IMG/VR virus record: IMGVR_UViG_2695420485_000005
Direction: 5' to 3' (one strand)
From: a virus
Lineage: Duplodnaviria > Heunggongvirae > Uroviricota > Caudoviricetes
DNA: 5,936 nt
The translations under genes were made by a program, and so were the position numbers. Under the pieces are notes generated by a model. That model ran no database searches, was not told the origin of the DNA, and worked only from the letters and a program-made list of their open reading frames with translations. Below, one piece after another: positions 3,020 to 5,936 of this stretch (positions within the stretch are counted from its first letter, which is position 1; each line of letters opens with the position of its first letter).

Positions 3020-3724
3020 ATGGAAAACAAAGATATTCGCAAATCGAATCTGGCGTTTTTGCTAGATGAGCATAAAAAAATCGCGGGTAACACTAATGCA
3101 AGCTTTGCCGATAAGCTTGGGGTTAGCCCTTCTCAACTCACGCAAGTCTCCGGTGAAAAAAGCACTCGAAACATAGGGGATAAACTAGCAAGAAAATTTG
3201 AAGCCGCGCTTGGGTTACCTAATGGGTGGCTTGATTTGGTACATGATGTAACACCAATTGCATCATGCTCAGATTCTTTAACTTTTGTCGGTCAGGTAAG
3301 AAAAGGGTTAGTGCGCGTGGTTGGTGAGGCAATTCTTGGTGTTGATGGTGCCATCGAGATGACCGAAGAGCGCGATGGGTGGCTCAAAATTTATAGCGAT
3401 GATCCAGATGCCTTTGGTCTTCGTGTGAAAGGAGACAGCATGTGGCCCAGAATAAAATCAGGAGAATATGTACTCATTGAGCCTAACACCAAAGTATTCC
3501 CGGGTGATGAGGTGTTTGTCAGAACCGTTGAAGGACACAACATGATTAAGGTTCTTGGCTATGACAGAGATGGAGAATACCAATTTACAAGCATTAACCA
3601 GGATCACAGGCCTATAACGTTGCCTTATCATCAAGTAGCAAAGGTGGAGTATGTAGCTGGTATTCTGAAGCAATCTCGCCATCTGGATGACATCGAGGCA
3701 AGGGAGTGGCTGAAAAGTTCGTGA
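3020..3724 (+). CDS. cI: cI-type prophage repressor (234 aa): N-terminal HTH plus C-terminal LexA-like S24 autopeptidase domain
   Basis: N-terminus has an HTH-like segment (SFADKLGVSPSQLTQVSG). C-terminal domain has the Ser/Lys dyad context typical of LexA/cI (GDSMWP ... NMIKVL). Divergent from cro across the operators; SD AGAGGGA upstream. Confidence 0.9.
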   Translation: MENKDIRKSNLAFLLDEHKKIAGNTNASFADKLGVSPSQLTQVSGEKSTRNIGDKLARKFEAALGLPNGWLDLVHDVTPIASCSDSLTFVGQVRKGLVRVVGEAILGVDGAIEMTEERDGWLKIYSDDPDAFGLRVKGDSMWPRIKSGEYVLIEPNTKVFPGDEVFVRTVEGHNMIKVLGYDRDGEYQFTSINQDHRPITLPYHQVAKVEYVAGILKQSRHLDDIEAREWLKSS

Positions 3725-3784
3725 CTTCATCGTCACATAGCTGGTAACCAGTGGCCAGAAGAAACGTTTGGGTGAGGAGGATAG

Positions 3785-4126
3785 ATGGCGTTCACTGACC
3801 TTGAATATCAAGCGGTCAAAAAAGAAGTTCACCAATTCATTGAAAGCATAAGGCCGCCTGAACATATCCGCAATGAACTGGATATTGTTTATAGCATCAA
3901 TGACCAAACGATAGATATCGGCGAACAGCGCCCCGTGTGGCAGGGCAACCCAGGTGAAACAAACATCCTGCCATCAGCAAGAATCAAGTACATACGTTCT
4001 CTGGATAGATGGAAAATCTATTGGATGCGGAAGGATATGAAATGGCATCAGTACAGTACTGAACTTTCGCTGACTGATGCGCTTGAGCTTGTGCGTGCTG
4101 ACCCGGATTGCTGCTTCTTCGGATGA
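3785..4126 (+). CDS. Hypothetical protein (113 aa), first gene of the cargo cassette downstream of cI
   Basis: SD GAGGAGG (3774-3780) 4 nt upstream of the ATG. Same strand as cI, 60 bp after the cI stop. No motif I can assign; ends in ...DPDCCFFG. Confidence 0.6.
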   Translation: MAFTDLEYQAVKKEVHQFIESIRPPEHIRNELDIVYSINDQTIDIGEQRPVWQGNPGETNILPSARIKYIRSLDRWKIYWMRKDMKWHQYSTELSLTDALELVRADPDCCFFG

Positions 4127-4196
4127 GTGAAGAGACGTTTGGATGATGGATGATCGCAGAGATGCTCGTAGAGCATACAGCGATGCAGGAGAATTT

Positions 4197-4631
4197 ATGG
4201 CACTTAATTTAGAAAGAATATCTTTTATAACCCCATTTGATAGCAGCGAAGAACCCAACCAACCGACGCTTAATTTTACATGCAATGAATTTCCTGCGCG
4301 GCTATCAATTGATTTCAGGGTTGGTATGATCGGGTTGAAACCAAATTCAAGATATAATTTGGGTATTATGGTAATCCCCGCGCACCTAATTATAAAAAAA
4401 GGTGAGGAAATTCAATTCCCTGACGGCTCTTCGGAATCAGTTTCACTTTTCATCGATACGAAAGATAGCCATTTTGAAACAGGGGTTGGCGGACAGGTAA
4501 TAGTAACATTGAAAGAAATTAGGGTCCCAGCTAAAGGGCTGTATAGTGTTATAGGGATATTGCAAGATAATGAAGACCCTAAAAATGAACTTCATAAAAA
4601 TGAATCATTTTTCACCGTAGAGCTATTATGA
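4197..4631 (+). CDS. Hypothetical protein (145 aa from ATG 4197; maximal ORF from 4143 = 162 aa), AT-rich, translationally coupled to the downstream gene
   Basis: The in-frame ATG at 4197 has a good SD (AGGAG 4187-4191, 5-nt spacer), whereas the ATG at 4143 has none, so I prefer 4197. The stop overlaps the next start (ATGA at 4628-4631). The region is visibly AT-rich compared with the flanking phage genes. Confidence 0.55.
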   Translation: MALNLERISFITPFDSSEEPNQPTLNFTCNEFPARLSIDFRVGMIGLKPNSRYNLGIMVIPAHLIIKKGEEIQFPDGSSESVSLFIDTKDSHFETGVGGQVIVTLKEIRVPAKGLYSVIGILQDNEDPKNELHKNESFFTVELL

Positions 4632-5248
4632 GTGACGACAGTAATTTAAATAATCATGGAAAGCAAGACACCAACATATCTGAAAGCCGGAGGTTGAAGG
4701 TTGTTGGCGGTTCCGATTTTGAGGCTGAATTTGATAATTCTCCCACCAAGGTGCAAAATAATTACATAAAACCGCCACAAACGGAGGAAGAAGTGGGAAC
4801 GATCAGCAGAGAGGAACTTGATGCTCGCTTAGCTGCTAATAAAGCAGAGATGGAGTCTATTGCTTCTTCCATTAGGGCTGACATGGCTCTATCTCGTGAA
4901 AGCGTTAATGTCCAATTTGCATCACTTAATGCAGCCATAAGCTCTCTATCGTCCAAGATCGATGGAAAGATGGATAGCGCTGCTGGCGATATAAAAGCAA
5001 TTAATGGGAGATTCGAAGGAATTCAAGGACAAATAACAGGGGTTAATACCGCAATTAGTGGTGTTCAGTCGGGTATTTCTATACGATTAGCCATTTTTAG
5101 TGTCATTATCGCTGTAATAGTTGCGATTCCCGGGCTGGTATCAGCTTTAAAGTCAGACCACGTACCTTTGCAACAGCCTTCCACTTTGCAAGCGCCGCCA
5201 CAAAATACCCAGCCAACAGACAACAAAAAAATCACTCCCCAGCATTAA
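4628..5248 (+). CDS. Hypothetical tail-anchored membrane protein (206 aa): cytoplasmic coiled-coil/repeat region, single C-terminal TM helix, Pro/Gln-rich tail
   Basis: Hydrophobic stretch LAIFSVIIAVIVAIPGLVSAL near the C-terminus. The preceding region shows an ~11-residue periodicity (GDIKAINGRFE / GIQGQITGVNT / AISGVQSGISI). C-terminal tail is PLQQPSTLQAPPQNTQPTDNKKITPQH. No signal peptide. Confidence 0.6.
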   Translation: MSDDSNLNNHGKQDTNISESRRLKVVGGSDFEAEFDNSPTKVQNNYIKPPQTEEEVGTISREELDARLAANKAEMESIASSIRADMALSRESVNVQFASLNAAISSLSSKIDGKMDSAAGDIKAINGRFEGIQGQITGVNTAISGVQSGISIRLAIFSVIIAVIVAIPGLVSALKSDHVPLQQPSTLQAPPQNTQPTDNKKITPQH

Positions 5249-5256
5249 CGCATTAA

Positions 5257-5282
5257 CCCGGCCTCAGCGCCGGGTTTTCTTT
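5257..5282 (+). terminator. Rho-independent terminator ending the cI/cargo operon (tIMM-like)
   Basis: Stem CCCGGC (5257-5262) / GCCGGG (5269-5274), 6-nt loop, followed by TTTTCTTTG. It lies 9 nt after the stop of the 206-aa gene. Confidence 0.7.
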
Positions 5283-5462
5283 GCCTCACGATCCCCACAC
5301 CTAAAAACACATAACCAATTGTATTTGTTGAAAAATAAATAGATACAACTTGCTAAACAACGCAATCCAGATCTCCCTCAAATCTCTTTATTTATCCTGT
5401 CGAATTCCTACAACAAAATAAAACACCATAAGAATCAATACGATATTTGAAAACCAAGAGAA

Positions 5463-5505
5463 TTTATCATTTTGCTATTGTCATTAATTTATCATTCCGA
5501 TAAAG
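5463..5505 (+). promoter_or_regulatory. OL operators with candidate pL
   Basis: A perfect 17-bp palindrome TTTATCATTCCGATAAA (5488-5504) and an adjacent site TTTATCATTTTGCTATT (5463-5479) 25 bp apart share the half-site used in OR. Candidate pL: -35 TTGTCA (5478-5483) with a poor -10 (ATAAAG/GATAAA, 5499-5505), oriented toward N. Confidence 0.5.
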
Positions 5506-5574
5506 TTCACCCATCAGCAGGACGCACTACTCACCAGGGCGGTGAATATACAACGATTCGAATATGAATCTACG

Positions 5575-5589
5575 GCGCTGACAAAGCGC
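5575..5589 (+). promoter_or_regulatory. nutL boxB hairpin (GCGCT-GACAA-AGCGC)
   Basis: 5-bp stem with a GACAA loop, preceded by CTACG exactly as in nutR. It lies in the leader between the putative pL and N. No convincing boxA was found upstream (best is a weak CGCACTACT at 5523-5531). Confidence 0.6.
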
Positions 5590-5754
5590 AATAACCAAAG
5601 TGAACTTTGGGGTGTGGTGAAGGGTTCATGGACGGGAATATGTCGCACGTAAAGCGGCGAGGCCTGCGGGACTATTGCCGAATTGAAGTAGGCCGAAACA
5701 GGTCGAAATGGGTCTCCCACCTACCACACCACCAAAGTTCATCAGGAGGTCTAT

Positions 5755-5936
5755 ATGACACGCAGAACTCAGTTCAAAGGCAATTCACGTTCTCGTCGTC
5801 GTGAGCGTTTAAAGGCAAAGGCATTAGCTAACGGCGTACTGGCCCGCGAAGAAGCAATAAGTTCAGAAGTATTACACCGCCCTACTCTAAGCAGAGCGCA
5901 GATTCAGGCTAAAGGTACTCACGAAACGCCTGAGCG
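5755..5936 (+). CDS. N: N-type transcription antitermination protein, 5' portion (runs off the window end)
   Basis: ATG at 5755 with SD AGGAGG (5744-5749). The translation MTRRTQFKGNSRSRRRERLKAKALANGVLAREE... has an arginine-rich motif near the N-terminus as in N proteins, and I recall this N-terminus from Stx-phage (H-19B/933W-type) N. The open frame continues to the window end. Not in the ORF track because there is no stop in the window. Confidence 0.8.
   Translation, partial: MTRRTQFKGNSRSRRRERLKAKALANGVLAREEAISSEVLHRPTLSRAQIQAKGTHETPE

Follow-up and report, generated by a model that had tools for sequence, protein, structure and literature searches.

Analysis of a 5,936-nucleotide (nt) stretch of DNA from a virus of the class Caudoviricetes (IMG/VR record IMGVR_UViG_2695420485_000005; the whole stretch is called the window below) revealed a lambdoid immunity and replication region in which three co-oriented open reading frames (ORF1, ORF2, and ORF3) follow the repressor gene cI. 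The minus strand carries ren, P, and O in addition to cII and cro (Table 1). The first-pass annotation of this DNA had described three frames of 113, about 145, and 206 amino acids (aa) after cI as a single three-gene cargo cassette. The three genes are present, with 144 aa for ORF2 read from ATG 4197, and the notion of a single cassette was abandoned, since ORF1 and the ORF2-ORF3 pair occur independently among genomes. The post-cI genes form two separately exchangeable sets of accessory genes, which are plausible candidates for anti-phage defence. The cII-cro-cI module of the window is 97.5% identical to that of BP-4795 and Stx1a-converting phages, and its cI is of the BP-4795/Stx1a-phage immunity type. 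Positions 3700 to 5300 are 100% identical to Escherichia coli S1-IND-01-A (NZ_CP145657.1).

Table 1. Features of the immunity region and of the interval downstream of cI (positions in the window)
Feature	Position	Strand	Description
cII	2235-2534	minus	Phage_CII, E = 3.3e-35
cro	2673-2906	minus	
cI	3020-3724	+	234 aa; helix-turn-helix (HTH) and S24 peptidase domains; Pfam Peptidase_S24, E = 3.8e-16
Fossil lambda-type cI 3' end	3737-3775	+	reads ...IAGNQWPEETFG*; translation matches the lambda CI C-terminus VIASQWPEETFG
Left linker repeat copy	3757-3775	+	19 nt, AGAAGAAACGTTTGGGTGA; last codons of lambda-type cI
ORF1	3785-4126	+	113 aa; DUF3024 / PADLOC PDC-S43 / phrog_3467; ribosome-binding site GAGGAGG at 3774-3780
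Right linker repeat copy	4128-4146	+	TGAAGAGACGTTTGGATGA; joint between the ORF1 module and downstream DNA
ORF2	4197-4631	+	144 aa (162 aa if read from the in-frame ATG 4143); HK542c105 / phrog_5893
ORF3	4628-5248	+	206 aa; HK542c104 / phrog_5820; start overlaps the ORF2 stop (ATGA)
Transmembrane helix of ORF3	5084-5152	+	residues ~153-175, RLAIFSVIIAVIVAIPGLVSAL; single transmembrane helix
Intrinsic terminator	5255-5276, with U-tract 5255-5284	+	consensus scan; right slot boundary
OL operator-like repeats	5387-5506	.	ATTTATCA half-sites; start of the early leftward operon, beyond the cassette
pL-like promoter	5478-5506		
N	5755-5936		starts at 5755

The interval between cI and the terminator is, on the evidence of its two boundary sequences, the slot that holds rexAB in phage lambda. 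Directly after the cI stop codon (3725 to 3775) lies the fossil of a foreign, lambda CI-like repressor 3' end. In HK542 and SCU-104, this fossil-end sequence, which contains the left repeat copy, is the genuine cI terminus. The fossil is the footprint of a past recombination in which the body of cI was exchanged and the downstream joint was retained. On the right, the intrinsic terminator placed at 5257 to 5282 by the first-pass annotation proved to be real, with a stem that begins at 5255. It folds with -17 kcal/mol (z = -3.8 versus shuffled sequences). The terminator and the bases beyond it are sequence identical to the lambda tImm region downstream of rexB (lambda locus 1360 to 1430), despite the different immunity type, and the equivalent terminator of HK542 carries the annotation Timm. 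The earlier assignment of the position to rexAB therefore holds, because a fossil lambda CI end bounds the interval at the left and a lambda tImm-identical terminator bounds it at the right. Part of a query covering positions 3700 to 5300 matched 918 E. coli genomes, probably because the tImm flank is common to them.

The gene cI is presumed to be the first gene of the pRM operon. It is separated from ORF1 by 60 nt and ORF1 from ORF2 by 70 nt; ORF2 and ORF3 share 4 nt. A consensus scan from the cI stop codon to the terminator found no terminator-like site on the + strand, and a single weak promoter-like site (9-of-12 match) was detected at 4731 to 4759, inside ORF3. Transcription of ORF1 to ORF3 together with cI in the lysogen appears likely because the gaps are short, ORF2 and ORF3 overlap, and no internal terminator interrupts the series.

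Alignment of the joints revealed 19-bp direct repeats on both sides of ORF1. The core motif of this linker occurs twice in the window, compared with zero expected occurrences. Homologous recombination within the repeats would let ORF1 be gained or lost. Comparison of the slot across related prophages, which the first-pass annotation had proposed as a check on gene turnover, was carried out and revealed five arrangements, with RexAB, stk, and a PD-lambda-2-like system as other occupants. In HK542 (EF120458) and HK244 (EF120457), a lambda-immunity cI is followed by ORF2-ORF3, without ORF1; the pair genes, the slot, and the Timm terminator are as in the window. In E. coli CP53, a window-type cI of equal length and a single repeat copy are followed by ORF2-ORF3, with ORF1 absent. 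In 933W, cI is followed by L0084, which is the ORF1 orthologue, by the right repeat with about 22 nt more, and then, after a point of divergence, by L0083-stk-L0081. Thus, ORF1 is the first gene after cI and the linker sequences are alike in 933W and the window, whereas L0083, stk, and L0081 are missing from the window, where ORF2-ORF3 comes after the right repeat instead. The window itself represents the fourth arrangement, and in SCU-104 all three ORFs lie behind a different cI.

Counts in complete E. coli genomes were determined for each module. ORF1 was present in 227 of 5,426 genomes, L0083-stk in 225/5,426, and the ORF2-ORF3 pair in 51/5,426. Among 50,697 phage records, the pair was found only in HK542 and HK244, where its products are labelled hypothetical proteins. 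All three genes of the window are under purifying selection: compared with homologs from other genera, the proportion of nonsynonymous differences (pN) is far below that of synonymous differences (pS), and the ratio of nonsynonymous to synonymous substitution rates (dN/dS) is 0.10 to 0.23 where it can be calculated. The slot holds two independent accessory (moron) modules, ORF1 and ORF2-ORF3, and not one unit, because the two assort independently. That ORF1, ORF2, and ORF3 act jointly as a single integrated defence system is hardly credible. The trio is co-oriented in one presumed operon and recurs in 18 of the complete E. coli genomes (5,426), with two or more different cI genes in front of it, as such a system would have it. 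However, the pair lacks ORF1 in HK542, HK244, CP53, and about 33 other E. coli genomes, as well as in all relatives examined outside E. coli; ORF1 lacks the pair in about 209 genomes, mostly together with L0083-stk, and stands alone in Rahnella; and the direct repeats around ORF1 explain its separate gain and loss. The module anatomy and the mosaic history of the slot are well established.

Profile and structure searches, which the first-pass annotation had also proposed, placed ORF1 in a named family and connected ORF2 and ORF3 only with phrog_5893, phrog_5820, and the HK542/HK244 hypothetical proteins. ORF1 matched Pfam DUF3024 (PF11225) over residues 4 to 113 of 113 (E = 2.4e-31; 108.7 bits versus a cut-off of 24.9), the PADLOC model PDC-S43 over its full length (residues 1 to 113; E = 7e-42), and phrog_3467 (E = 4.5e-67). 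The earlier statement that none of the three proteins resembles a known family must be corrected in this respect; it stands insofar as no resemblance to RexA or RexB and no kinase domain was found. The AlphaFold2 model of ORF1 (predicted local distance difference test [pLDDT] score, 90.9) has a five-stranded antiparallel sheet, with one helix on its N-terminal and another on its C-terminal side; as modelled, the protein is a soluble alpha-beta5-alpha sandwich. Structure comparison of the model gave no prominent enzyme fold, and the predicted fold resembles small protein-binding or inhibitor proteins. The invariant positions are grouped at both ends of the protein, in an N-terminal MAFxDxE motif and a C-terminal D...CF[FW]G motif. 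An ORF1 sequence match to AvrPto in the PDB was insignificant and was dismissed as chance or compositional.

The one literature mention found of PDC-S43 lists it as a predicted "phage defense candidate" for an O157:H7 strain, in which PD-T4-6 also occurs. A literature search found no experimental test of anti-phage activity of PDC-S43 or DUF3024. ORF1 is 98% identical to L0084 of 933W. The first-pass annotation had named stk as the 933W gene in this slot; stk is indeed there and is reported to be co-transcribed with cI, and the first post-cI gene is L0084. Outside E. coli, DUF3024 occurs in an Erwinia prophage as the first gene of a block consisting of DUF3024, a 153-aa protein, a kinase, and a 47-aa protein, beside DinI at a prophage end (locus 3071 to 6130); in Rahnella alone, next to DinI and tail genes (locus 3089 to 4342); in Yersinia ruckeri in an island near smpB; and in one metagenomic copy without phage context.

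This distribution raises the question of whether ORF1 is an accessory or regulator of the Stk module that was left behind by recombination and serves no independent function here. The block of DUF3024, a 153-aa protein, a kinase, and a short ORF is common to 933W and the Erwinia prophage (ORF1 identity, 59%; the prophage sites differ), and the E. coli genome counts for DUF3024 and L0083-stk nearly coincide, as would be expected of such an accessory. Nevertheless, this explanation is very improbable, given that ORF1 is intact and under purifying selection where stk is missing, in the window (several lineages carry a 100% identical copy) and in Rahnella and Y. ruckeri, where it stands alone, and that PADLOC models it as a single-gene candidate. 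The kinase alone is reportedly enough for exclusion. We regard ORF1 as a module in its own right. Both DUF3024, alone or together with the Stk block, and an ORF3-family pair were also observed beside DinI at prophage ends (Erwinia; Rahnella; Yersinia locus 4016 to 5699). The DinI-side site looks like a second cargo site that trades modules with the post-repressor slot.

The start codon of ORF2 is probably ATG 4197. This codon was preferred because a strong AGGAG site lies 6 nt before it, homologs (143 to 144 aa) start at the equivalent position, and the alternative ATG 4143 lies inside the linker repeat; the longer frame was dropped. ORF2 is identical in amino acid sequence (100%) to the HK542 protein and matched phrog_5893 with E = 3.3e-50. 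The protein is acidic and soluble and has no signal peptide. The guanine-plus-cytosine (GC) content of ORF2 is 0.375, compared with 0.445 for cI, 0.459 for ORF1, and 0.503 for ren-P-O. This low value suggests import from a source of lower GC content and is typical of imported cargo. A PDB match of ORF2 to RuvB-like 2 was insignificant and was likewise judged to be chance or compositional.

ORF3 shares 98.5% amino acid identity with the HK542 protein and matched phrog_5820 with E = 3.6e-76. Family alignment revealed a variable N-terminal region that contains LKVVGGSDF, a conserved helical core, heptads, a transmembrane helix, and a tail. The heptads are rich in glycine (KIDGKMD, SVDGDIK, AINGKFE, GIQGQIT, GINTAIS, and GIQSGIS), and family members differ by 7-residue indels. 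The Kyte-Doolittle maximum over 19 residues is 2.71 for ORF3 and at most 1.0 for ORF1 and ORF2. The features of the protein sequence lead us to expect a tail-anchored coiled-coil membrane protein with a cytoplasmic N-terminus, because no signal peptide is present. After the transmembrane helix, a short tail rich in proline and glutamine follows, with QPIIIQVPQ in most family members. The tail of the window and HK542 proteins is degenerate, reading QPSTLQAPPQ (5189 to 5215, residues ~188 to 196), which hints that a periplasmic contact has been altered or lost. Comparison of the ORF3 profile with the PDB gave only insignificant matches, to trimeric coiled coils; those to SmhB, haemagglutinin HA2, and reovirus sigma-1 were attributed to chance or composition. 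Weak family matches to Baculo_PEP_C, Rota_VP6, SlaB, MakE, MakA, and LmuB were far below threshold. The identity of ORF3 as an alpha-pore-forming toxin of the ClyA family (MakA/MakE/SmhB) was rejected as a compositional effect, with 15.6 bits versus a cut-off of 360 in NCBIfam and E = 0.15 to 0.25 for SmhB.

Genes of the ORF3 family were located in Escherichia, Citrobacter, Yersinia, Pectobacterium, an Arsenophonus metagenome-assembled genome, and 45 viral contigs, and an ORF2-like gene was also present on a cut Xenorhabdus contig. The contexts described here are based on a profile scan of viral contigs and on exact-protein look-ups; a scan of genome contigs with the ORF3 profile gave 2 loci. 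Each full-length ORF3 gene has a small partner gene directly upstream, abutting or overlapping it. Of 13 distinct contexts, about 11 have the pair immediately after a repressor gene. According to Pfam, these repressors contain HTH_3 and Peptidase_S24 or are short HTH_3/Phage_CI_repr proteins with divergent YdaS/YdaT-type genes. The contexts not behind a repressor are other prophage cargo sites, one of them adjoining DinI.

Three partner types were distinguished: the ORF2 type (143 to 144 aa), a loosely conserved type B (~92 to 101 aa; ~97 aa), and a type with a CxxC motif (112 to 135 aa). Sequence comparison detected no relationship among the three types, and remote homology between ORF2 and the type B partners was discarded, the two being unrelated (profile-profile probability, 0.2%). 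The partner type co-varies with the N-terminus of ORF3. The motif L[KR]V[VI]GG[ST]xF is present in 18/18 non-redundant ORF3 proteins that have an ORF2-type partner, which represent about five diverged lineages, and in 0/10 of those with other partners. All 18 non-redundant ORF2-type pairs have the 4-nt overlap. The co-variation fits docking of the partner on the ORF3 N-terminus, as far as this can be read from sequence. We lean towards a physical complex of ORF2 and ORF3.

Genes at this position might alternatively modulate lysogeny or induction, in the manner of the pRM-encoded Hex of phage 434, through the stability of the repressor or the threshold of SOS/RecA induction. Such a role is quite improbable for the genes studied here. 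A similarity to PsiB was weak and was one of many alpha/beta sandwich matches, the pair is found behind repressors with and without the S24 autocleavage domain, which is a poor fit to a role in RecA-mediated cleavage, and DUF3024 is also found away from repressors.

The other occupants of the slot bear on a role in defence. Published work calls the cI-to-N interval a hotspot of mosaic diversity in which accessory loci are frequent, with RexAB and BstA as examples. At least four validated defence systems use the slot, namely, RexAB, Stk/PD-T4-6-type, PD-lambda-2-like, and BstA, and the defence prior for uncharacterised occupants is therefore higher. In 933W, stk, which matches the PADLOC PD-T4-6 models, is reported to be co-transcribed with cI, and Stk to abort infection by HK97 (PMC3564112). 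L0084 must be on the 933W cI-stk mRNA because it is located between the two genes, so that the operon which begins with the ORF1 orthologue includes a proven exclusion gene. In the transcriptome of a phi24B lysogen, cI and stk behaved alike, and neither changed on induction. The 933W protein L0083 (153 aa; locus 4495 to 4956) gave a faint, subthreshold RuvC-like Pfam match (E = 0.042) and no PADLOC match; one RefSeq record labels it "RuvC family protein."

In BP-4795, which shares the immunity module with the window, three genes also occupy the slot behind the matching cI. Two of them match PD-Lambda-2_A (HigB-like; E = 2.5e-42) and PD-Lambda-2_B (E = 3.8e-50), and the third encodes a PD-T4-9_C-like protein. 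PD-lambda-2 is an experimentally validated abortive-infection system. These BP-4795 proteins, among them a HigB-like toxin and a protein resembling Xre-type antitoxins, are unrelated to those of the window, and ORF1 to ORF3 gave no PADLOC or Pfam match to HigB-like toxin or Xre-peptidase models. The B component of BP-4795 (locus 5159 to 6500) has 218 aa and matched positions 3 to 125 of a 402-position profile; this PD-lambda-2-like copy may be truncated or a variant.

RexB of phage lambda is polytopic. Like ORF2-ORF3, rexA and rexB lie as two genes between a lambda-type cI 3' end and tImm. The rex genes are expressed with cI in the lysogen, and according to the literature they encode a cytoplasmic and a membrane component. 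RexB is reported to be an ion channel, in contrast to ORF3 with its single-transmembrane, tail-anchored coiled coil. No similarity of ORF1 to ORF3 to lambda RexA or RexB was found by BLASTP (all E > 0.1; best RexA match, E = 0.12 over 16 residues; no RexB match), nor was there a PADLOC match. The best BLASTP match to lambda SieB had E = 1.9, and Pfam gave no match to it. Pfam and PADLOC detected no kinase domain in ORF1 to ORF3, and stk has no counterpart in the window. BstA of the Salmonella prophage BTP1, an abortive-infection defence, is likewise encoded behind cI and depends on the cI promoter for its transcription; it differs in being a single protein, which is reported to localise to the places where phage DNA replicates.

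From these comparisons, a defence or exclusion role is the best single hypothesis for the genes in the slot, with about even odds of being true. If it applies, the translationally coupled ORF2-ORF3 pair may be a two-component exclusion or abortive-infection device. ORF2, a cytoplasmic immunoglobulin (Ig)-like beta-sandwich, would dock on the N-terminal motif of ORF3 and serve as the sensor or specificity subunit. The conserved membrane-acting subunit would be ORF3, a tail-anchored and probably oligomeric coiled coil of the inner membrane; it would perturb the membrane in a Rex-like manner once activated, or else interfere with genome entry. Such a membrane-effector mechanism is speculative and less likely than not. 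ORF1 is a stand-alone, small soluble protein of the DUF3024/PDC-S43 family, most likely transcribed with cI in the lysogen. Tentatively, and with a confidence below even, we propose that ORF2-ORF3 belongs to an undescribed family of repressor-linked two-component exclusion or abortive-infection systems, with a conserved ORF3 core as the tail-anchored inner-membrane effector and with an N-terminal docking segment and partner that are swapped together among at least three unrelated partner families and change what is sensed, and that ORF1 is a separate single-gene defence or modulator gene that hops between post-repressor cassettes via the 19-bp linker.

Several observations weigh against a defence function. 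For none of the three proteins did the literature search find a functional experiment. ORF2 and ORF3 correspond to no solved structure and to none of the PADLOC models, and no Pfam family scored above its threshold with either of them. The modelled folds are of a generic binding or scaffold type without recognisable effector chemistry, and the model of ORF2, an Ig/fibronectin type III (FnIII)-like beta-sandwich, is of moderate confidence (pLDDT, 68). The label PDC-S43, which ORF1 matches at full length, designates a computational candidate, with no sign of a basis beyond genomic context. The co-variation of partner and motif is confounded by linkage, adjacent DNA being co-inherited, and comes from only about five diverged lineages. 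Post-repressor genes are also known in other roles: the pRM-encoded Hex of phage 434 stabilises lysogeny, and bstA was first tied to virulence phenotypes.

Another possibility is that these are lysogenic-conversion genes, similar to lambda bor and lom, that act on the envelope, physiology, or virulence and have no direct anti-phage role, with ORF3 as an envelope or stress scaffold. ORF3 would suit this as a membrane protein with a periplasmic tail motif, QPIIIQVPQ, that is conserved in most members; according to the literature, accessory prophage genes expressed in the lysogen include virulence factors; and the modules are also found at prophage-end cargo sites beside DinI and tail genes. We consider this explanation unlikely. 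The characterised occupants found in the slot are mostly exclusion or defence systems, and an architecture with swappable partners suits recognition of variable targets more than housekeeping.

That the slot is an accessory hotspot, that ORF2 and ORF3 are deposited as hypothetical proteins, and that ORF1 is a candidate is already known. Frequent defence functions of post-repressor cargo are an established idea, and the gain would therefore be incremental and not conceptual. If ORF2-ORF3 does defend, it would represent a compact, membrane-anchored family whose sensor partners can be interchanged and a natural experiment in swapping specificity modules onto a fixed effector, and it would provide a function for the genes that replace rexAB in HK542 and HK244. 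ORF1, with its 227 E. coli genomes, is carried by Shiga toxin (Stx) phages of the 933W type, and whether it has an effect on exclusion or induction bears on the ecology of Stx phages. The linker repeats display the shuffling of cargo at the base-pair level.

Additional observations were made in the regions flanking the slot. An antisense ORF of 149 aa on the minus strand (3458 to 3907) overlaps the 3' end of cI and the start of ORF1; it is annotated in none of the matching records and is probably spurious. The half-site ATTTATCA(T) was seen both in the cro/cI intergenic region (2941 to 2997) and upstream of N (5387 to 5500), and the two clusters presumably correspond to OR and OL, respectively, in this immunity type. 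The ORF for the N antiterminator is whole in the parent genome (8056 to 8439 of the locus), where it encodes 127 aa with a weak match to N_peptide (21 bits versus a cut-off of 27.9); the RefSeq annotation at this position is limited to a 69-nt pseudogene fragment labelled "regulator." The O gene contains tandem repeats of about 20 nt in 3.8 copies (1778 to 1855), which is consistent with iterons of an origin of replication (ori), such as 933W has annotated at the corresponding position.

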